Virus record (IMG/VR): IMGVR_UViG_3300009668_000001
From: a virus
Strand: one strand, 5' to 3'
Length of the DNA stretch: 7,308 nucleotides
The notes below the pieces were generated by a model. That model saw only the letters and a program-made list of their open reading frames with translations, was not told the DNA's origin and did no database searches. Of this stretch, positions 1 through 7,308 are shown piece by piece (the first letter of the stretch is position 1; each line of letters starts with the position of its first letter). Position numbers and translations under genes: made by a program.

Positions 1-123
1 CAATTATACGTACCCGCACGGCATAGAAAAAAGCCGCGCTAGCGGCGATCAGACCACCAAGCAGCCCTGGCCCGGTGTCGTAATTCCCGGAAGAAAACCA
101 CGCCAGCGTGCTCGCTATCAGGG
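1..123. repeat. Terminal redundancy, copy 1 (identical to 7186..7308)
   Basis: Base-by-base comparison shows the 123 nt from caattatacgtacccgcacgg to ctcgctatcaggg are identical at both window ends. Confidence 0.97.
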
Positions 124-394
124 CCAGCATAACGGCACGCGACACAAAAGACCGCCAGAACTCGGCCCGCTTGGGGTTCCTTTCCTTCTGGCTTTCCAGG
201 TCGGCAAATACCATCGCAGGGTCTTGATTTAGCGTTATTGCCAGTTTGAAGGCAGCCTCTGCGCTGATATGTTGCTGTCCTAGTCTGTAGGCGCTGATTC
301 TTTGTCGGGTGGTCCCGAGTCTCTGCGCCAGTTCGTTATCCGATGTGATGCCAATCACGGCTTTTGCTGCGTCTAGGTATTCGCTCGGCGTCAT
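1..394 (-). CDS. Xre/cI-type HTH repressor with two predicted C-terminal TM helices (first 131 codons; the ORF continues across the circular junction into 7185..7121)
   Basis: ATG is the reverse complement of 392..394, preceded by GGAAGGA. My translation is MTPSEYLDAAKAVIGITSDNELAQRLGTTRQRISAYRLGQQHISAEAAFKLAITLNQDPAMVFADLESQKERNPKRAEFWRSFVSRAVMLALIASTLAWFSSGNYDTGPGLLGGLIAASAAFFYAVRVRII... The segment NELAQRLGTTRQRISAYRLG is a typical Xre helix-turn-helix. AVMLALIASTLAWF and LLGGLIAASAAFFYAV are hydrophobic helices. The ORF is missing from the supplied track because it runs off the window edge. Confidence 0.75.
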   Translation of the reverse strand, partial: MTPSEYLDAAKAVIGITSDNELAQRLGTTRQRISAYRLGQQHISAEAAFKLAITLNQDPAMVFADLESQKERNPKRAEFWRSFVSRAVMLALIASTLAWFSSGNYDTGPGLLGGLIAASAAFFYAVRVRII

Positions 395-529
395 GGTTTC
401 CTTCCCCTACTGATTTACTGCGTCAATCCATCCTAGTCCGATTTCTTGGGCTTGCAATGTCCAAGAATTAGGACAAGAATTCGCCTTGTCCGAATTTTGG
501 GACGTCACCTACAGCGAGGAGTCAAGGTC
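395..529. promoter_or_regulatory. Divergent control region between the repressor (-) and the structural/replication operon (+)
   Basis: This is a 135-nt gap between divergent start codons. The palindromic hexamer TTGCAA (452..457) could serve as a -35 on both strands. On the plus strand it is followed by a 17-nt spacer and AAGAAT (475..480). On the minus strand it is followed by a 16-nt spacer and TAGGAT (reverse complement of 430..435). CAAGAATT occurs twice (462..469 and 474..481). Confidence 0.45.
471..491. promoter_or_regulatory. Candidate operator palindrome GGACAAG-N7-CTTGTCC
   Basis: Perfect 7-bp inverted arms (471..477 and 485..491) are centred on GAATTC. The left arm overlaps the putative plus-strand -10 element. 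Confidence 0.4.
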
Positions 530-838
530 ATGCGAGTTACGGTCATCGGGGTTAAGAGAATGTCAGGGGTTGGCAAGGATTCGGGGCGCACGTTTGACTT
601 TGCGCAAGTCGAGGTTATGCGGCCGATGGAACAGTCTGCATCGCCAAAATTCAAGCTTCACGGGTTCGGCTTCGAAACCAGCAAGATCGACCTGGCGCCG
701 GATGTGCTGGAAAAGTTCAGGGAAGTCCGTTTTCCGGCCGTTCTCGATCTGGCTATTGAGACGGTCCCGGCCCGGCAGGGTCTGCGGTCCGTCGTTGTGG
801 GGTTCCGGCCAGCGGCCGACGTCAAAGCGGCGGCGTAG
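530..838 (+). CDS. Candidate ssDNA-binding protein (gene V-like), 102 aa
   Basis: ATG at 530 has GAGGAG (516..521) 8 nt upstream. The protein is small and looks beta-rich. Its N-terminal pattern MRVTVIGVKRMSGVGKDSGRTFDFAQVEV resembles the start of inovirus ssDNA-binding proteins such as Pf3 (recalled from memory). It is the first gene of the operon, next to rep. The function is inferred, not demonstrated. Confidence 0.55.
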   Translation: MRVTVIGVKRMSGVGKDSGRTFDFAQVEVMRPMEQSASPKFKLHGFGFETSKIDLAPDVLEKFREVRFPAVLDLAIETVPARQGLRSVVVGFRPAADVKAAA

Positions 839-840
839 TC

Positions 841-1185
841 ATGGCTACCGCTGTTGAGCGGTCTTGTCTGACTTGCAGGCACGCGCGCAAGGTGTCTCCG
901 GTCGTTGCCGGCCTGTCGCGTTGTCTGCTGTCTGATCTTGTCGGCCCGGTGTCGTCCATCTGTGGTTCGTTCGCTCCGTTGTCCGGTCGTCCGGTGGATC
1001 AGGTGATCGGGTTGTCTGTTGACGGTCGTCCGGTCCTGTTCGGGCAAGAGGTTTCTGCCGTTGCCTTTGATGCGTCGCTGTCCGATCTGCGGCAAGGCCC
1101 TGGCGGCCTGGGCGGTGGGTTGGAAAACGGTACGGTACAGTTACACGTACCGAAGCGGCCAAAAGTGGCCGATTTCGCCGCATGA
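841..1185 (+). CDS. Hypothetical protein, 114 aa
   Basis: It starts 2 nt after the preceding stop, and its TGA overlaps the rep ATG (ATGA at 1182..1185). The composition is unusual: rich in V/G/S/L/P/R/C and encoded by an A-depleted tract. I recognise no family. Confidence 0.5.
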   Translation: MATAVERSCLTCRHARKVSPVVAGLSRCLLSDLVGPVSSICGSFAPLSGRPVDQVIGLSVDGRPVLFGQEVSAVAFDASLSDLRQGPGGLGGGLENGTVQLHVPKRPKVADFAA

Positions 1186-2321
1186 AAACCTCAAGCCTGC
1201 CTTTTTCGTCTGTCTCGCCTGGGGTGGATTTGGCCTGCCCGGTCGGCCTGGATTGCTTCTGCGATTGGCTGACGGCGTATCAGGATCACGCGGAAGGCGG
1301 GCTTCCGGTGCTCAATGATGGCTATGCGGTCCGGTTCGGCCCGGAAGCCCTCAAGCGGGCCATTTGTCAGGATACCGGCGAACTGCGGACGTTCTTCGAT
1401 GCGTCGGAAGCCGAGTACACGGTGAGCCGGCGTATTGAGCACGAGGGGTCTTTCGATACTCGCCTCGCTATCCGGTGCGATGGCACGCGAGTCGAGCTAT
1501 CCGGCAATGTCGGGCGATTCGGACGGCCTGATAACCTCTTCGGCCTGTCGGTGCTGGATACCCTTCTGCGGGCCAACGAGATATTGCAGGCCCTGGGGTT
1601 GCCGGCGTTCTCGCATCTTGAGCGCAACGCGGGTCATGCACGCGATGACGGGTTCCACAAGTCGCACAACGTGGTGATTACCCGCGTCGATCTGACCGCC
1701 AATTTCGCAACGGGGAGCCGTGAGGCTGCGTTTCGGGTGCTGCACTGGATGAGCGGACAGGGCACCAGCCGCAACGCGGGCAAGAATCCCCGGAACTACG
1801 GAAACGGGGTTACGTGGAACGAGGGAAGTGCACGACATTACGAAAAGCTCTATTTCAAGGGTGATGAGCTAGGGCGGCATGTTTCGCCGGAAGTTGCGCA
1901 GTACTGCATAGACAACGGCATCCTGCGTTATGAGGTCAGTCTCAAGTCGAGGGAACTGGCGGATAGAAATCTACAGTCAATGGTCGCGTGGTCACGTGTG
2001 AATCAGGAGGGTTTGAGAATGGAACAGGTCATCTACGGGCGATTCGCCGAAGTACTCACGCGGAATCAGGTCACTGTTACGGAGATACAGGACATTCCCG
2101 GAAAGCTCGGCCTGATCGCTCGGTCGTATCTCAACGGGGAGAACCCCTACGAAACCGGATCGCCGGCCGTGCGCACGCGTCGACGGTGGCGTTCGCAACT
2201 GCTCAAGTACGGCCTGGATATTGCGCAGCCCTGCGACGTGATGCGCTTGACTACTCGGGTCCGGGTGATCGAGCTAGAGCCGGTCAGTGCTCCGGCGTGG
2301 TATTCCCGGATGGCTGCGTAA
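1182..2321 (+). CDS. Rolling-circle replication initiator, phage/plasmid gene II/X (CRI/RstA-like) family, 379 aa
   Basis: Three motifs read from the translation are characteristic of this Rep family: SGNVGRFGRPDNLFG (compare the GN..K...GHN.FG block), VITRVDLTANF, and HYEKLYFKGDEL followed by LRYEVSLKSRE (candidate catalytic Tyr region). Size and position also fit the RstA or gpII analog. Confidence 0.85.
   Translation: MKTSSLPFSSVSPGVDLACPVGLDCFCDWLTAYQDHAEGGLPVLNDGYAVRFGPEALKRAICQDTGELRTFFDASEAEYTVSRRIEHEGSFDTRLAIRCDGTRVELSGNVGRFGRPDNLFGLSVLDTLLRANEILQALGLPAFSHLERNAGHARDDGFHKSHNVVITRVDLTANFATGSREAAFRVLHWMSGQGTSRNAGKNPRNYGNGVTWNEGSARHYEKLYFKGDELGRHVSPEVAQYCIDNGILRYEVSLKSRELADRNLQSMVAWSRVNQEGLRMEQVIYGRFAEVLTRNQVTVTEIQDIPGKLGLIARSYLNGENPYETGSPAVRTRRRWRSQLLKYGLDIAQPCDVMRLTTRVRVIELEPVSAPAWYSRMAA
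2019..2321 (+). CDS. Candidate nested gene X-like product (in-frame internal start in rep, 100 aa)
   Basis: AGGAGG (2005..2010) lies 8 nt upstream of ATG 2019, which is in frame with rep since (2019-1182)/3 = 279. In Ff phages, pX is made in exactly this way from the C-terminal part of gene II. Confidence 0.4.
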   Translation: MEQVIYGRFAEVLTRNQVTVTEIQDIPGKLGLIARSYLNGENPYETGSPAVRTRRRWRSQLLKYGLDIAQPCDVMRLTTRVRVIELEPVSAPAWYSRMAA

Positions 2322-2644
2322 TGGCTTCCTTCGCCTTCTCCGGCGTCTGTTACGAAACGCCAGAAACGGCCCTTGCGGCGTTTTCCCGGTCGCTGCCGAT
2401 AGTGGATGCGGTCGGCGTCACAACGCTGTCGTCTGCGCCTTCTGTGAGTCCTGGCGGGGTCATTACGTGGTCCGTTTCCAACGTGCCGTTTTCAACGGGC
2501 GTTGCCGTTACGAGGTCCGGGACCACACAGTTGTCGACCTGTTCGGTTCCTCTTCTCGATCAGTTTCCAGTCCAGTCCATCCTCTTCGTTGCGGCCGTGT
2601 TCTTTGCGGCCGTGTCGGGTTTTCGTGCGGGGTTCCGGCCATGA
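2321..2644 (+). CDS. Hypothetical protein with C-terminal TM anchor, 107 aa
   Basis: TAATG overlap with the rep stop (2319..2323). The C-terminus is hydrophobic (SILFVAAVFFAAVSGF). The upstream extension of the same frame from 1988 lies inside rep and was not used. Confidence 0.6.
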   Translation: MASFAFSGVCYETPETALAAFSRSLPIVDAVGVTTLSSAPSVSPGGVITWSVSNVPFSTGVAVTRSGTTQLSTCSVPLLDQFPVQSILFVAAVFFAAVSGFRAGFRP

Positions 2645-2757
2645 CTGGCGCCGAAGTTGTCGAGTTCATTGCATACCTGGTATCGGCCTGGTCATCGGGC
2701 TTTGCCGGGGGCTACATCATCACGAAGTACAAAGACGCCATGAGCCAGTGCGGGTAG
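2641..2757 (+). CDS. Small hydrophobic protein, 38 aa (pVII/pIX-like minor coat candidate)
   Basis: ATGA overlap with the upstream gene (2641..2644). The sequence is MTGAEVVEFIAYLVSAWSSGFAGGYIITKYKDAMSQCG, with one hydrophobic helix. It sits immediately before the major coat gene, as gVII/gIX do in Ff. Confidence 0.5.
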   Translation: MTGAEVVEFIAYLVSAWSSGFAGGYIITKYKDAMSQCG

Positions 2758-2763
2758 GTCCAG

Positions 2764-2795
2764 CGGGCGCCCTCTGCGTGAGCGGGGGGCGCCCG
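2764..2795 (+). other. GC-rich stem-loop upstream of the major coat gene
   Basis: cgggcgccc (2764..2772) pairs perfectly with gggcgcccg (2787..2795), giving a 9-bp stem and a 14-nt loop. No T-run follows, so it is not a classic intrinsic terminator. Confidence 0.4.
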
Positions 2796-2837
2796 GTGGG
2801 CGTTCCACCTCTAACCTTTGTCTTGAAAGGACAAGTC

Positions 2838-3071
2838 ATGAACCTCAACATCAAGCCGCGTTTCGGCCGCAAGGCATCTCTGGCCCTCGTTCTGGCCGTC
2901 TCGGCCGCTGCTGCACAAGCTGCGCTCCCGACGGAAGCTGCGGCCGCGTTCACCGGCATCTCCGACAACGTCACGGATATCCTGGCCGTGGTCTGGCCGA
3001 TCGTCGCCACCATGACGGGCGGCTTCGTGCTCATCAAGCTGTTCAAAAAGGGCGCCAACAAAGCGACCTAA
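2838..3071 (+). CDS. Major coat protein precursor (pVIII-like), 77 aa
   Basis: AAGGA lies upstream of the ATG. The signal peptide MNLNIKPRFGRKASLALVLAVSAAAAQA ends in AXA. The predicted 49-aa mature protein has an acidic N-terminus (E,D,D), a hydrophobic core (ILAVVWPIVATMTGGFVLI) and a basic C-terminus (KLFKKGANKAT). This is the classic inovirus coat architecture. Confidence 0.88.
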   Translation: MNLNIKPRFGRKASLALVLAVSAAAAQAALPTEAAAAFTGISDNVTDILAVVWPIVATMTGGFVLIKLFKKGANKAT

Positions 3072-3080
3072 GCAGTATCC

Positions 3081-3359
3081 ATGTCATCGGGTCTTGTCGT
3101 TGCGGCGGTCGTTTCGGCCGTCGCCATTGCCGGCACGAGGGTTCCGCCAGTTGGCTGTGCGGAGTCTTCCTCTGGGGCGCGCCTTTGTCTCTCGGATAAA
3201 CCGATCAGGGATACAAGGGAGCGGCAATACCTCGATGCTCATCCGGCCACTGTCGCACGGCCCGCACGGCCTTTCTATCCGGTCGGTCAGGTAGTCGATA
3301 ACCTTGATGCCGATTCGTTGATCCTGGGCCGATACGGCCAGCAGAGGGCCTACAAATGA
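3081..3359 (+). CDS. Hypothetical protein with N-terminal hydrophobic segment, 92 aa
   Basis: MSSGLVVAAVVSAVAIAG is a signal- or TM-like start. The stop overlaps the pIII-like start (ATGA at 3356..3359). There is no clear SD sequence and I recognise no family. Confidence 0.5.
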   Translation: MSSGLVVAAVVSAVAIAGTRVPPVGCAESSSGARLCLSDKPIRDTRERQYLDAHPATVARPARPFYPVGQVVDNLDADSLILGRYGQQRAYK

Positions 3360-4918
3360 GCGGTGATTTTCAGGCGTCAATGCGGCGCCTGTTGTGGTTC
3401 CTGATCGGTATCCTGATAGCGGCCGTCTGGCTGGTTCCGTCGGCGCGTGCTGAAACATGCTCGGCGGGTGTCTGCACTCAACCGGCAACCGTCGGGAGTA
3501 CGGTTCCCGCTTATCACTACTGGAAATCGGTAGCCAACATCGGACCTGAATACGCTGCGGCGGCCGCGTTGGATTACGCTCGGCTGTGCGGAACGAGGGC
3601 GCCTTCTGGCACTCTGGCTGCGGAGCCGACAAATCCAGCTAACGGTGCGTATTACACAACGGGTCAGTATTGCGTTATCGGCGGTGGCATTTACAACGCT
3701 TCCGTCTCGCATTGGGCGACGTGTAATACCACTCTCGGCGGTCCTGGCGGCACGATGTCAGGCGGCGCGGGTTCATACGTCTGTACCCTTCCAGGCTACT
3801 ACTGTCCGTCAACGGGCGGCTGGACGTTATCCGGCACCAACTGTACCCGGCCGGCCTGTGCGGAAGGCGAAACGAGACAACCTGACGGCACGTGCTTGAA
3901 ACCGTGCAAAATTGCCGAAAACGATCAGGTAGACCCTGGCGGCTACTATGAGGACACCGGGCACGGTGCAGAGGTCACGGACTGCGTTCAGGGTTGCCGG
4001 GTGTATATCGGTGGCAAAATTTTCAAGGAAGCCGGAAAAACCTACGGACAGGCATGGTCCTACGGCACTCCGTGCACAGGTTCCACTACTCCAGGAGTCG
4101 AGACTACCGAGCAAGACGAGGCGTGCGCCAAGCGGGGACTTTGCGGCGGCACGTTCAACGGTAAGCAGGTGTGTACGGCCTGCGACGAAACCAGCCAAAC
4201 CACGAAAACCACGAAAACCGAAACGCCAGAGGGCGGCGGCACGCCTGTTACCACCACCACCACCACCACCGAAATATGCAAGGAGTCCGGCAGTTGTACC
4301 ACCACCACCACCACAAGCTCATCATCGGGCGCGAGTAGTACCACCACCACCACAAAGCCGGGTGGAACAGCCAGTGGTGAGGGAATTACCCCAGGCGCAA
4401 CCGGAAATTGTGATACGGACGCCAGTGCTATCGAGTGCGCCAATTCAGCATACGAGGCTGCGCTCTGTTCAGCGGAGCCGGTCTGTTCAGGTGATGCCGT
4501 GCAATGCGCTCAGGCTCTCGAGGTCTGGAAAACCCGGTGCGAAGTCCTCAAGGCGCTAACGCCTGATGTTGCCGACGATGCCCCGATCAGCGGAGCCGAT
4601 GCAACGAAAGCCTCTCGCACGGCGTACCAGGAACAGATGGATACCATCAAAGATCAGATCACGGGTGCATTGCCTGATCCGTCTGCCGATTCCAAGTCTG
4701 CCTGGGAATCTGCCCTATCTACTGGCTGGTTCGATGCGATTACGATCACCGGCTGTACTGCTCAGGATTACGCCATCGGTCCCTACATCTGGCACTTTGA
4801 TCCATGTCCAACGGCCGAAAAAATCAGCGACATCGGCAGCTATGCGCTCTGGCTGTCTCTGGTTATCGGGGGCTTTGTTTTCGTAACTGGCGGACGTAAC
4901 GCGGGGATGAGTCACTAA
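3356..4918 (+). CDS. Minor coat / host-adsorption protein (pIII-like), 520 aa
   Basis: The signal peptide ends ...VPSARA, followed by ETC. Cys-rich N-terminal domains are joined by Thr/Ser-rich linkers (TTTTTTT, TTTTTTSSSSGASSTTTTT). The C-terminal hydrophobic anchor is YALWLSLVIGGFVFV. It is the largest ORF and lies between the coat gene and the pVI-like gene. An alternative start is M9 at 3380. Confidence 0.8.
   Translation: MSGDFQASMRRLLWFLIGILIAAVWLVPSARAETCSAGVCTQPATVGSTVPAYHYWKSVANIGPEYAAAAALDYARLCGTRAPSGTLAAEPTNPANGAYYTTGQYCVIGGGIYNASVSHWATCNTTLGGPGGTMSGGAGSYVCTLPGYYCPSTGGWTLSGTNCTRPACAEGETRQPDGTCLKPCKIAENDQVDPGGYYEDTGHGAEVTDCVQGCRVYIGGKIFKEAGKTYGQAWSYGTPCTGSTTPGVETTEQDEACAKRGLCGGTFNGKQVCTACDETSQTTKTTKTETPEGGGTPVTTTTTTTEICKESGSCTTTTTTSSSSGASSTTTTTKPGGTASGEGITPGATGNCDTDASAIECANSAYEAALCSAEPVCSGDAVQCAQALEVWKTRCEVLKALTPDVADDAPISGADATKASRTAYQEQMDTIKDQITGALPDPSADSKSAWESALSTGWFDAITITGCTAQDYAIGPYIWHFDPCPTAEKISDIGSYALWLSLVIGGFVFVTGGRNAGMSH
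4199..4354 (+). repeat. In-frame ACC (Thr) microsatellites and a 9-nt tandem repeat within the pIII-like linker
   Basis: accacgaaa x2 starts at 4199. (ACC)7 is at 4250..4270. (ACC)5+ACA is at 4298..4315. (ACC)4+ACA is at 4340..4354. All are in the pIII reading frame. Confidence 0.9.
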
Positions 4919-5289
4919 TGCCATTGCCAATTGTCGGCGGTCTTTTCGCCTGGATTCTGGGCCTTGTCGGAAGCACGGCTACGGCTGTGTTTACCTGGGT
5001 AGTCGCACGGCAAACTTTCACCATTGCCCTGCATTACGCACGCGTGACGGCCTTTGTGATGACAGCGGGCGCGTTGTTCCTGGGCGTGTCTCTGAGCATC
5101 AAGGCGGCGATCTTTGCGGCGCGAGTGGCGATGCCGAGTTCGCTCGGTATGGCGACCTATTTCCTACCCGGCAACATCAATACGGTCCTGGCGATATTCG
5201 TTGTGGTGCGCGTGTCTGCGGCCGTCTATGCCTGGACCTTGCGCAACATCAAAATTTATACCGGGATCGAATCCGGCAAGCTGATGTAA
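4918..5289 (+). CDS. Multi-pass small membrane protein (pVI-like minor coat; the family usually found just upstream of zot), 123 aa
   Basis: TAATG overlaps at both ends (4916..4920 and 5287..5291). There are about three hydrophobic helices. It occupies the gVI/ace position between the pIII-like gene and the Zot-like gene. Confidence 0.7.
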   Translation: MPLPIVGGLFAWILGLVGSTATAVFTWVVARQTFTIALHYARVTAFVMTAGALFLGVSLSIKAAIFAARVAMPSSLGMATYFLPGNINTVLAIFVVVRVSAAVYAWTLRNIKIYTGIESGKLM

Positions 5290-6194
5290 TGGCTGATTAC
5301 GCCATAACCGGGCGCAAGGGTTCCGGCAAAACGCTATTCGCTGTCGGGGTCATCCGGGATGCCCTTCGGGCGGGTCGTCGCGTTGCCACCAACGTCGACA
5401 TTCGCCTGGATGCCCTGCTCGGCCCTCGATCAAAAGCTATTCTCACTCGGTTACCAGACAAGCCAACGGCCGCCGATTTTGAGGCTATCGGACGGGGTCA
5501 GGCCGGCCCGGTCGAGGACGATAACGGGGTCATCGTCCTGGATGAGACGTCCACATTTTTCAACAGCCGCGCCTTTGGCGACAAGGACCGCCAGCCGCTG
5601 CTGGATTGGCTGGTGCATAGCCGCAAGCTCGGGTGGGACGTCTACTACATCTGTCAGGGTCTGGACCAGATAGACAAGCAGCTGCGTACCACCATGATCG
5701 AGTATCACATCATCGTTCGGCGCACGGACAAGTGGCCTATTCCTCTCGTAACACCGATCACGGCCGCACTCGGTTACCGGGTAGGTTTTCCGAAGTGCCA
5801 CATAGGCGTTTGCCGTCATGGTGTCGAGCGCGATGCCCTGATCGTCAAGCGCACGTTCTACCGGGCCAAAGACCTATTCAATGCCTACGACACTCAACAG
5901 CTATTTCTACCTCGCGACCATCCGGCCGCGTGCGGTGTCCATACCCTGCTGTCTGCTCATCTTGTTGCCGGCCGATATCTACCTGAGCCGCGGCCGTGGT
6001 GGTTGCGGTTTGCCTGGGGTCTGTTCGGCCGCGAAGCGCCACAAGTCGAGCCGCCTCGAACACTCAAGCCGAAATTGCCCTGCATTGCCGATCTGGCTAC
6101 CCTACCGCCAGAGCAAGCCATGCAGGAGTGGCGACGCTTGGATGCCCTGGGCGTGCTCGACAATCTCTACTCACGCACCGAACATCCTGGCTAA
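5289..6194 (+). CDS. zot: Zot / gene I-type phage assembly NTPase, 301 aa
   Basis: N-terminal Walker A GRKGSGKT (residues 8-15) and Walker B-like VIVLDE (81-86). The segment HTLLSAHLVAGRYLPEP resembles the SYLTPYLSHGRYF segment that precedes the TM helix of Ff pI (recalled from memory). The position after the pVI-like gene is canonical. Confidence 0.85.
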   Translation: MADYAITGRKGSGKTLFAVGVIRDALRAGRRVATNVDIRLDALLGPRSKAILTRLPDKPTAADFEAIGRGQAGPVEDDNGVIVLDETSTFFNSRAFGDKDRQPLLDWLVHSRKLGWDVYYICQGLDQIDKQLRTTMIEYHIIVRRTDKWPIPLVTPITAALGYRVGFPKCHIGVCRHGVERDALIVKRTFYRAKDLFNAYDTQQLFLPRDHPAACGVHTLLSAHLVAGRYLPEPRPWWLRFAWGLFGREAPQVEPPRTLKPKLPCIADLATLPPEQAMQEWRRLDALGVLDNLYSRTEHPG

Positions 6195-6210
6195 CAGTAT
6201 CAAATAATGA

Positions 6211-6236
6211 TTGACAAGCTCAAATTGTGATATAAT
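6211..6236 (+). promoter_or_regulatory. Sigma70-type promoter for the downstream regulator gene
   Basis: TTGACA (6211..6216) and TGaTATAAT (extended -10, 6228..6236) lie in a sharply AT-rich island. The spacer between these two hexamers is only 14 nt, so the extended -10 is probably the main determinant. AAGGAG (6253..6258) lies 6 nt before ATG 6265. Confidence 0.6.
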
Positions 6237-6264
6237 AGAATCTCAATAACACAAGGAGCCAGTC

Positions 6265-6570
6265 ATGAAAACCGATACCCGTAACCCGCTACGTGTTCAA
6301 CTAGAAATCGCCGAAACGCTGATCGAACCCCATTCCGAATGGTCGGCTGCGGAACTGATCGAGCGTCACGGCGTCAGCCTCGCAACTCTCAATCGCTACA
6401 TCGCCGAACTGCGGCGCATGGGTGCTCGAATCCAGTCCTCTGGCGGCGGCATGAATCCCTGGCATTACCGGATGCTCAACCGTGAGCAATGCGCCAAAAC
6501 TGTTAGCCGCTGGCTACAGTTGGAAACCGCACGGGACTTAACTTTCCTGGGCAAGTACGCCGATCAATAG
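6265..6570 (+). CDS. Small winged-helix/HTH DNA-binding regulator, 101 aa
   Basis: It has a strong SD and its own promoter. WSAAELIERHGVSLATLNRYIAELRRMGARI reads as a helix-turn-helix of the HTH_11/DeoR-N-like kind. It sits in the variable slot downstream of zot. Confidence 0.7.
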   Translation: MKTDTRNPLRVQLEIAETLIEPHSEWSAAELIERHGVSLATLNRYIAELRRMGARIQSSGGGMNPWHYRMLNREQCAKTVSRWLQLETARDLTFLGKYADQ

Positions 6571-6582
6571 TCATGCAATGTT

Positions 6583-6700
6583 CCAGGCGAACTGTATCAA
6601 GCCATGATGCAGACAACCTGGATGCGCAAGTCGGCCCGCTACCAGGCGAACTGTATCAAGCCATGATGCAGACAACCTGGATGCGCAAGTCGGCCCGCTT
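6583..6700. repeat. Perfect 58-nt direct tandem duplication (period 59 nt)
   Basis: 6583..6640 and 6642..6699 are identical: ccaggcgaactgtatcaagccatgatgcagacaacctggatgcgcaagtcggcccgct. They are separated by a single a. The period is not a multiple of 3. Confidence 0.97.
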
Positions 6701-6768
6701 TCCCCCATTCTTTTCTGTAGACCGCTTTGAACGGTGGAACTACGTGCGCACGCGTAGCGCCCGGTTGA

Positions 6769-6871
6769 GCCAGCGGTCGCGTTTTGTGCGGCCGCTGGTG
6801 ATTTACCGGGGCGGCGTCCGGTCGCCCCCAGCGACCGGGCGCCGATGCGGGAGCCGCCTGCAGATCGGCGC
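6769..6871 (+). other. Cluster of three GC-rich stem-loops (candidate packaging signal / minus-strand origin)
   Basis: HP1 pairs ccagcgg (6769..6775) with ccgctgg (6791..6797). HP2 pairs ccggtcgc (6818..6825) with gcgaccgg (6831..6838) around a 5-nt loop. HP3 pairs gcgccgat (6839..6846) with atcggcgc (6864..6871). All lie in the apparently non-coding 6571..7120 region. Confidence 0.4.
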
Positions 6872-6896
6872 GGGCGCCGGCGGCGGAGCCGCGAAA

Positions 6897-6924
6897 TCTG
6901 CCTGCCTACAATGTCTGCCTGCCT
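6897..6924 (+). repeat. Two 11-nt direct repeats tctgcctgcct (iteron-like)
   Basis: Copies are at 6897..6907 and 6914..6924, separated by acaatg and followed by ggggttttt. Confidence 0.6.
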
Positions 6925-7120
6925 GGGGTTTTTCGTTCTTCTCGATCTGCTTTCGTGAGCAATCATCCCATCCCACTTCGAGCGCCAGCAGTCCCGGTTT
7001 AACCTACGGCCGAATCAACAATACGCCTTTGCTTTTGCTGCCCTGGCTGCACAAGATTTCCCGGCTTCACCGGATGCCCTGCCCGGTCAGGGCTTCTGCG
7101 GTCCGTGCTTGCCAGACTCG

Positions 7121-7308
7121 CTACGGGTTCATGATTTGTTGCAATCGTTCATCACGATTTGATACGTATGGTTTATCATAATCGCCAATTATACGTACCC
7201 GCACGGCATAGAAAAAAGCCGCGCTAGCGGCGATCAGACCACCAAGCAGCCCTGGCCCGGTGTCGTAATTCCCGGAAGAAAACCACGCCAGCGTGCTCGC
7301 TATCAGGG
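7121..7308 (-). CDS. 3' part of the same repressor gene (second copy of the redundant segment plus a unique 21-codon tail; stop TAG at 7121..7123)
   Basis: Continuing the minus-strand frame from position 1 into 7185 gives ...RVRIIGDYDKPYVSNRDERLQQIMNP followed by a stop. The full ORF is 152 codons, joined as complement(7124..7185,1..394). Confidence 0.7.
   Translation of the reverse strand, partial: LIASTLAWFSSGNYDTGPGLLGGLIAASAAFFYAVRVRIIGDYDKPYVSNRDERLQQIMNP
7171..7199 (-). other. dif-like XerC/XerD recombination site (candidate attP)
   Basis: The minus strand reads GGTACGTATAA-TTGGCGA-TTATGATAAAC. E. coli dif is GGTGCGCATAA-TGTATA-TTATGTTAAAT. The match is 9/11 in each arm, with a 7-nt rather than 6-nt central region. 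The site sits in one of only two AT-rich patches of the genome. Bases 7186..7199 recur at window positions 1..14. Confidence 0.45.
7186..7308. repeat. Terminal redundancy, copy 2 (identical to 1..123)
   Basis: Same comparison as copy 1. This is consistent with a circular molecule or assembly overlap, or with reading into a second tandem copy. Confidence 0.97.

Follow-up and report, generated by a model that had tools for sequence, protein, structure and literature searches.

A dif-like site in the repressor gene of an uncultured inovirus is probably a VGJphi-type attachment site for Candidatus Accumulibacter

Introduction

Inoviruses that exploit the Xer recombinases of their host integrate at the chromosomal dif site, which serves the resolution of chromosome dimers. 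VGJphi of Vibrio cholerae integrates at dif1 through a single 29-bp duplex phage attachment site (attP). Both Xer proteins are needed, but catalysis is by XerC alone, since homology is lacking beside the XerD arm; replication or repair then resolves the Holliday junction, and the flanking sites are competent for XerC-dependent excision (PMC4246890). Here, we analyzed a dif-like site in the virus record IMGVR_UViG_3300009668_000001, a stretch of 7,308 nucleotides that is called the window below. After weighing the data, we put the probability at roughly 0.88 that this site is the attP of a temperate, integrase-less, VGJphi-type inovirus of Candidatus Accumulibacter that exploits Xer recombination and inserts at dif. 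Candidatus Accumulibacter is a bacterium of enhanced biological phosphorus removal in wastewater plants.

Related arrangements have been described in other hosts. In phiRSS0 of Ralstonia solanacearum, the 3′ end of the reverse-oriented ORF13 contains attP. This ORF encodes a 156-aa helix-turn-helix (HTH) regulator, and integration at dif introduces a new stop codon that shortens the product from 156 to 130 aa, for which a state-dependent regulator function was proposed (PMC3816273). In XacF1 of Xanthomonas citri, attP is part of the regulator gene ORF12, and XerC/D-dependent insertion at dif splits this ORF; an equilibrium between integration and excision is reached, and the regulator stabilises the prophage (PMC5666396). 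CTXphi and TLCphi, which resemble the window phage in their RstA/RstB-like replication proteins, also exploit host Xer and target dif. CTXphi uses a folded single-stranded attP made from two inverted sites about 90 nt apart, and its virion production depends on tandem copies (PMC4246890). In TLCphi, the site measures 28 bp and has a dif-like centre, strand exchange starts with XerD, and the phage encodes the Xer activation factor XafT. Neither the folded attP of the former nor the 28-bp design with a dif-like centre of the latter is present in the window phage.

Both the Xer-exploiting mechanism and the placement of an attachment site inside a repressor gene have already been described, and a specialist in integrative mobile elements exploiting Xer (IMEX) will find the mechanism to be unsurprising textbook biology; the host and the sequences are new. 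In the literature searched, we found no description of a dif-integrating inovirus of Accumulibacter. The present analysis ties an uncultured, metagenome-only inovirus to this host, with the sequences of attP, of the bacterial attachment site (attB) and of the junctions resolved to the base pair.

A single dif-like site in a circular genome

The window consists of a 7185-nt circular inovirus genome and an exact 123-nt repeat of its first bases (1-123 = 7186-7308). The plus strand at 7171-7199 reads GTTTATCATAATCGCCAATTATACGTACC, and its reverse complement is GGTACGTATAA TTGGCGA TTATGATAAAC, exactly the minus-strand sequence that the original prediction, which was made before any database search, had reported as a dif-like site. 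The 29 bp are laid out as 11+7+11, with a XerC-type arm GGTACGTATAA (7189..7199), a 7-nt central region TTGGCGA (7182..7188) and a XerD-type arm TTATGATAAAC (7171..7181), all read on the minus strand. Each arm agrees with Escherichia coli dif at 9 of 11 positions, which gives the 18 of 22 matches that had been predicted. The site also forms the AT-rich patch that had been noticed in a genome of about 60% GC, its own GC content being 34.5% against 58.7% for the genome.

In a scan of both strands of the circular genome that allowed spacers of 6-8 nt, this was the sole site that scored at least 15/22, and the next best scored 14. None of the dinucleotide-preserving shuffles (n=300) reached 18, two reached 17, and the analytic expectation is 4e-4 sites of this score per genome. 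The significance scan that had been recommended therefore revealed no comparable site elsewhere in the genome, and chance rarely approaches the observed score in shuffled sequence. Additionally, no recombinase or integrase domain was detected in the 15 open reading frames (ORFs) scanned against Pfam and PHROG, in agreement with the earlier statement that none is encoded.

These scans bear on a CTXphi-type route, in which two inverted dif-like sites in the single-stranded (+) genome would fold into a hairpin attP and integration would be irreversible. The phage does encode an RstB-like protein and an RstA-like Rep, as CTXphi does. However, only one site reaches at least 15/22, the four next-best sites (14/22) are distant and lie on the same strand rather than inverted, and the junctions described below are those expected from a single duplex site, one of them regenerating a full 28-bp dif. 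Because there is no second, inverted site, the hairpin is excluded, and we regard a CTXphi-type route as exceedingly improbable.

The length of the centre was also considered. A 6-nt register (TTGGCG followed by ATTATGATAAA) was rejected because it breaks the TTATG with which the XerD-type arm starts; this start is common to attP, the host dif and all relatives except L031. Centres of 7 nt also occur in relatives (TTGACGA, TTTGGGT and TTTGGGA), among them the sites GGTGCGCATAA-TTTGGGT-TTATGTTAGTT and ACTTCGTATAA-TTTGGGA-TTCCGTTAAGC, which are different in sequence. The 11+7+11 layout is family-wide, and the fit to dif within the spacer is limited to the XerC-side bases.

The empty host site

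The host site was predicted as ACTTCGTATAA TTGATA TTATGTAAACT from the junctions of L010, a complete prophage of an 83%-identical relative, and 185,579 species-representative genomes were then scanned. The predicted site was found exact and unoccupied in a metagenome-assembled genome (MAG) of Ca. Accumulibacter propinquus (JADKBU010000011, L016). A second MAG (L015) carries the same empty site, and in both it is flanked by an alpha/beta-hydrolase gene and purM. The centre and XerD arm recur in a third MAG (L017), where the context differs. Left of the site the GC skew is positive, right of it negative, and the cumulative maximum is at most 0.4 kb away (L016 and L018-L020). Such a flip is expected of a dif located at the terminus, the skew windows here covering only 8-14 kb. 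In L015, whose contig ends 149 nt from the site, only the negative skew to the right of the site is visible. The FtsK-orienting polar sequence (KOPS) motifs around dif, at 1-3 per flank, were too few to use.

Alignment with the host dif, a check that had been suggested, revealed identity between the site in Ca. A. propinquus and attP over the inner XerC arm and three spacer bases. The shared block, CGTATAATTG, lies on the minus strand at 7186..7195 (= window 1-10) and consists of the inner seven XerC-arm bases CGTATAA and the first three spacer bases. It is the only part that attP and dif have in common at the crossover. Of the central region, only the XerC-side TTG matches the host centre TTGATA, and the XerD side is GC-rich and non-homologous to the host dif; the XerD-type arm agrees with the host arm TTATGTAAACT at 7 of 11 positions, as judged by eye. 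By this alignment, the crossover must fall within the CGTATAATTG interval.

Integrated forms and their junctions

Eighteen metagenomic contigs, from sludge and digester samples, were found to carry the exact Zot protein of the window phage, with nine places (L001-L009) among the matches listed. The attP is intact in free or tandem forms (L001 and L003-L005) and recombined with the host dif in L002 and L021. Contig L002 (JGI 3300010340) agrees with the window at 99.99% identity. Its phage sequence breaks off after window position 10, and a flank of 553 nt then runs into the alpha/beta-hydrolase gene; this flank is 98.4-98.6% identical to the Accumulibacter locus. Its junction reads host-ACTTCGTATAA TTGGCGA TTATGATAAAC-phage. 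The sequence on the phage side, TTATGATAAAC-catacgtatcaa, is particular to the window phage, differing in the L018-type prophage introduced below, and host-specific bases are no more than about 15 nt away. Because the two kinds of bases lie so close together, inside one read or k-mer, this junction is unambiguous for the window phage.

The reciprocal junction, phage-GGTACGTATAA TTGATA TTATGTAAACT-host, is present in L021 and L024 together with the purM-side flank, and L021 is 100% identical to window 1-6696. The products are a regenerated 28-bp dif on the purM side, GGTACGTATAA TTGATA TTATGTAAACT, in which the phage XerC arm is joined to the host centre and XerD arm, and a 29-bp attP-like hybrid on the hydrolase side, ACTTCGTATAA TTGGCGA TTATGAT....

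Complete prophages of related phages occupy the same place. L010 lies between the same two host genes, with a left junction hydrolase-ACTTCGTATAA TTGACGA TTATGATTTGC-phage and a right junction phage-GGTACGTATAA TTGATA TTATGTAAACT-purM; its centre, TTGACGA, shares TTGA with the dif centre. L018-L020, one of which is a 653-kb MAG contig, contain complete prophages with a different inovirus backbone at this place, and the attP centre of the integrated L018 type is TTGGCGA, as in the window phage. The proposed search for integrated copies thus yielded a phage-specific junction in L002, the other junction in L021 and L024, and complete related prophages in L010 and L018-L020. In sample ERZ795029, attP (L005) and the hybrid junction (L021) were found together, and contig ends imply that empty attB is present too. 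This co-occurrence fits an equilibrium of integration and excision and fits mixed populations as well.

Could the junction contigs be assembly chimeras, with the window phage purely episomal and only its relatives integrating? The 397-nt repressor module of the window phage is identical to that of the resident L018-type prophage; an assembler could therefore walk from that prophage's junction into the window-phage backbone, and L021 and L024 could be such graph walks. Moreover, most contigs of the window phage are circular or head-to-tail (L001 and L003-L005), and two metagenome_contigs scans, for the hybrid junction TACGTATAATTGATATTATGTAAAC (25 nt) and for the phage side GCSKTGYGGGTACGTATAATTG (22 nt), found no match. 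These negatives are uninformative, however, because the scans missed sequences that are known: GCSKTGYGGGTACGTATAATTG exists in JGI contigs L002 and L004, and TACGTATAATTGATATTATGTAAAC exists in JGI contigs L018-L020. The L002 junction, which passes from host-specific to phage-specific bases within about 15 nt, argues against a chimera, and so does the attP centre TTGGCGA, which is the same as that of the integrated L018-type prophage. A purely episomal window phage is, in our judgment, very improbable.

In other hosts, more distant members of the repressor family (L011-L014 and L034 10385-10412) are fused to further dif-like sites. One of these sites, AGTTCGTATAA TTTGTA TTATGTAAAAT, adjoins an isocitrate-lyase-like gene, and another, AGACCTGATAA TGTATA TTATGTAAAAT, lies in a 670-kb contig in which a Tn3 transposase and a tyrosine integrase are found on the far side of the prophage. 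No second junction of L034 was detected at a score of at least 15/22.

Head-to-tail arrangements were also observed, with one or two intact attP sites between full copies, in L001 (ENA ERZ795065, 13,867 nt) and at positions 1-131 of L002. They may represent prophages in tandem, multimers formed during replication or a path of the assembler around a loop.

A putative integration mechanism

Based on the site and its junctions, we propose a putative mechanism for integration. The double-stranded replicative form would present a single dif mimic composed of a XerC-type arm, a 7-nt centre and a XerD-type arm, and host XerC and XerD would bind this mimic together with chromosomal dif (ACTTCGTATAA-TTGATA-TTATGTAAACT). 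XerC would then exchange one pair of strands at the border between arm and centre, where the TTG homology would permit religation. On the XerD side, the phage centre is one base longer and non-homologous (GCGA vs ATA), so that completion of the reaction by XerD, or its reversal through FtsK, would not be possible. As for VGJphi, replication would resolve the Holliday junction, and integration would yield a 134-aa prophage isoform of the repressor. We infer the need for XerC and XerD, and the catalysis, from the architecture of the site and from the published work on VGJphi (PMC4246890).

The VGJphi attP, as read from AY242528, is ACTTCGCATTA TGTCGGC TTATGGTAAAA, again 11+7+11, and this sequence and the reported length of 29 bp (PMC4246890) agree with the 7-bp centre that had been stated for the VGJphi class. 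Neither phage has an integrase, and in both a single duplex site of 29 bp is used. In both, the identity to dif presumably comprises the inner XerC arm and three spacer bases (CGCATTA-TGT in VGJphi and CGTATAA-TTG here, compared by eye with dif1 in the case of VGJphi). The presence of one site, the 7-nt centre, the XerC-side TTG, the GC-rich mismatch on the XerD side and the pair of products, a 28-bp dif and a 29-bp hybrid, all fit the VGJphi mechanism. The two phages differ in host, which is V. cholerae for VGJphi and the betaproteobacterial Ca. Accumulibacter here; there is no nucleotide similarity to VGJphi, a Fibrovirus, and the dif and arm sequences differ.

In a TLCphi-type route, by comparison, XerD would act first, activated by a phage-encoded Xer activation factor, and XerC would complete the reaction. 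The XerD-type arms of relatives (TTATGATTGCT, TTATGATTTGC, TTCCGTTAAGC) are degenerate, which recalls the TLCphi attP (PMC4246890), and a small HTH_11 protein of unassigned role is encoded upstream of attP at 6265-6570. However, the TLCphi attP is 28 bp long and its centre is almost identical to dif (PMC4246890), whereas the centre here is 7 nt long and matches on the XerC side only. The XerD-type arm of the window phage itself is good, with 9/11 matches to E. coli. Additionally, no ORF gave a Pfam family match suggesting a XafT-like factor, although a divergent activator is possible. We consider a TLCphi-type route very unlikely and retain the VGJphi-type mechanism.

Contig ends at the crossover interval

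The original prediction had noticed that window position 1 falls inside the spacer on the side of the XerC arm, and had left it open whether this was coincidence. Position 1 (= 7186) is the third spacer base from the XerC-type arm and the first base that is common to attP and the prophage-junction paths. The departure of L002 from the phage sequence after position 10 lies at the other edge of the 10-nt identity block, and position 1 is the point of joining in the prophage junctions of L021 and L018. Across independent assemblies, contig ends are found at both edges of this block in the window, L003, L001, L021 and L022/L023. Thus, L003 (MEGAHIT, k=141, 7326 = 7185+141 nt) shares its first base with the window (7308 = 7185+123). 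In L001, a SPAdes-style NODE contig, position 7195 is the end of the first 55-mer, and the last 55-mer of L021 consists of 45 host bases followed by positions 1-10. L022 and L023, from Logan, end on the last junction-specific k-mer if the Logan k is 31. L004, a loop contig with k=123 (7185+123), starts elsewhere.

When integrated and circular forms are both present, a loop contig from a de Bruijn assembler begins and terminates on a branching k-mer. We infer that the repeat of 1-123 at 7186..7308 is the k-mer overlap of an assembled circular genome, and that its position is a junction scar at which the attP and prophage-junction paths merge. A deterministic ordering of k-mers was rejected as the reason for the shared start, because the k values differ (123 and 141) and it is the start, not the end, of the first k-mer that is common. 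This ordering is further disfavoured by the sequence CAATTATACG..., which is not lexicographically extreme, and by the different start of L004 at k=123. The ends of 'circular' metagenomic contigs can be scars of integration junctions, and they can be mined for att sites.

Several points weigh against the assignment of this site as a VGJphi-type attP for the dif of Accumulibacter. L002 also contains an intact attP, which would make it either a tandem prophage or a walk around a graph loop. The junction in L021 and L024 possibly belongs to the L018-type inovirus prophage, given its identical 397-nt module, rather than to the window phage. The window and L003 may come from the same reads, and their shared start base does not necessarily represent two independent events. 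Moreover, the host site is assigned as dif from its sequence, its single occurrence and a GC skew over only 8-14 kb, and the role of XerC and XerD is deduced from sequence and from the analogy with VGJphi.

The repressor gene and its tail

The attP covers codons 127-137 of a repressor-like HTH_3 regulator gene of 152 codons, which runs on the minus strand from 394..1 and then from 7185..7121 across the linearisation point. An HTH_3 domain at the N terminus of the protein is followed by two hydrophobic segments with centres near residues 91 and 120. The earlier placement of the site within the tail of the repressor gene was correct. That this location is an oddity, as had been suggested, no longer stands, as phiRSS0 and XacF1 were already known from publications to have this layout, and the GenBank record of VGJphi shows it too, with the functional attP inside orf154.

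In VGJphi, attP occupies an equivalent position in the 3′ part of the reverse-oriented HTH regulator gene. Residues 1-126 of the window repressor align with residues 1-113 of orf154 at 28% identity (E 1e-12); in both proteins, the aligned part ends directly ahead of the residues encoded by att. Because the VGJphi design is common to gamma- and betaproteobacterial inoviruses whose regulators are 28% identical, the arrangement is old and conserved rather than a Vibrio peculiarity. As far as the available text on phiRSS0 goes, that phage shares with the window phage a betaproteobacterial host, integration at dif and a regulator that is shortened (here from 152 to 134 aa), and it differs in that its att core is reported there as a 19-nt repeat only. 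No Ralstonia phage was among the tblastn matches of the repressor at E <=1e-3; therefore, homology between the repressor and the phiRSS0 regulator is not established. XacF1 (Cf) likewise has attP inside a regulator ORF and integrates at dif, and weak homology to the window repressor was detected among the regulators of Xanthomonas inoviruses (Xf109, 26% identity; tblastn). The host of XacF1 is a gammaproteobacterium, and XacF1 is experimentally characterised, whereas the window phage is known from metagenomes only.

Since attP lies in codons 127-137, integration would swap the last 21 residues of the repressor, GDYDKPYVSNRDERLQQIMNP, for DIM and a stop codon, changing its length from 152 to 134 aa. 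Codons 1-131 (1..394, minus strand) would stay with the prophage and become a 134-aa protein ending in VRII-DIM, and codons 132-152 with the stop codon (7121..7185, minus strand), which encode the tail, would come to lie at the opposite end of the prophage. When the predicted hybrid (residues 1-131 plus DIM) was looked up as an exact sequence, it was found as P0058 (= MEF8707741.1), which is annotated from Ca. A. propinquus and present in 6 contigs, among them L021, L024 and L018-L020. The exchange of tails that had been anticipated upon integration is thus represented by a protein in public databases.

The XerC-type arm encodes the residues (R)VRI(I). All homologues of the regulator keep VRII and diverge after it; several stop there at contig ends, and some end in the three-residue tails DIM or CIM, L010 being a DIM form. 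Among 19 aligned homologues, R129 is invariant and I130 and I131 are conserved in at least 90%. The att-encoded Ile residues use ATA, the rarest Ile codon of the window phage (10/85), and ATA is also used there in the four relatives read at this place (L010, L011, L026 and L031), which indicates constraint at the DNA level. In free-form homologues, the tail motif Y..x..S....RLQxIM is kept down to 45-54% identity. Because this motif reaches beyond the att-constrained bases, the 21-residue tail looks like a functional peptide, as far as can be told from its conservation.

The repressor gene and attP also appear to be shared between backbones. Window 1-397, which contains the entire part of the repressor gene on this side of the linearisation point, is 100% identical to L018 9998-10394 and then diverges. 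Across the crossover point, window 7172-7185 and L018 4184-4197 are identical over 14 nt (TTGGCGATTATGAT), and they diverge inside the XerD-type arm. The inovirus of L018-L020, L022 and L023 has a different Zot, coat protein and Rep from the window phage. A shared 397-nt module with one boundary inside attP suggests that Xer recombination between co-resident phages makes mosaics, and, from these alignments, the repressor and attP look like a recently exchanged cassette, possibly moved in this way.

We tentatively speculate that attP within the repressor gene acts as a switch that reads the physical state of the genome, on a repressor-attP cassette that moves between unrelated inovirus backbones; we hold this to be possible rather than likely. 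The tailed 152-aa form may then be made only from circular or tandem genomes, and the 134-aa form from a single prophage. If so, immunity, prophage stability or virion production would depend on the integration state of the genome.

A terminator-like hairpin, GCCGCTAGCGCGGC followed by TTTTTTCTAT, was observed on the minus strand at 33-46 (= 7218-7231), within the repressor coding sequence (residues AASAAFFY) and 18 nt upstream of the XerC-type arm. Its bases are kept in L010 and L018 and not in L013. The hairpin may restrict transcription that would otherwise pass the junction into host DNA, or it may have arisen by chance.

Other features of the genome

The other genes are those of an inovirus, as assigned by profile scans (Pfam and PHROG): an RstB-like single-strand-binding protein (530-838), a gpII/RstA-type rolling-circle Rep (1182-2321), a Gp8 major coat protein (2838-3071), a Thr-rich pIII-like protein (3356-4918), a pVI-like protein (4918-5289) and Zot/pI (5289-6194), as well as the small HTH_11 protein mentioned above. 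A whole-genome nucleotide search against 50,697 GenBank phage records gave no match, and relatives were found at the protein level only. The Rep is only 25-30% identical to known inovirus Reps, and both Rep and the structural genes are only distantly related to any GenBank phage (25-30% identity). In a promoter scan, no sigma-70 consensus was found near the repressor or HTH_11 gene.

Public gene calls contain a 202-codon ORF on the plus strand at 6573-7181, which overlaps the repeat region described below and the repressor tail. It had no family match in the profile scan, its sequence is GC-rich and looks non-coding, and it is probably spurious.

In the pIII-like protein, Thr-rich linkers are encoded by ACC and AAACCACGA repeats at 4197-4270 and 4300-4350. 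Linkers of this kind are typical flexible connections between receptor-binding domains.

Downstream of the HTH_11 gene, a perfect tandem duplication of 59 nt (2.0 copies, 100% match) was found in non-coding sequence at 6583-6699. It may serve as an origin, a packaging signal or a set of operator repeats. Assemblies break within this duplication, with L001 and L005 ending at 6637 and L005 starting at 6645.

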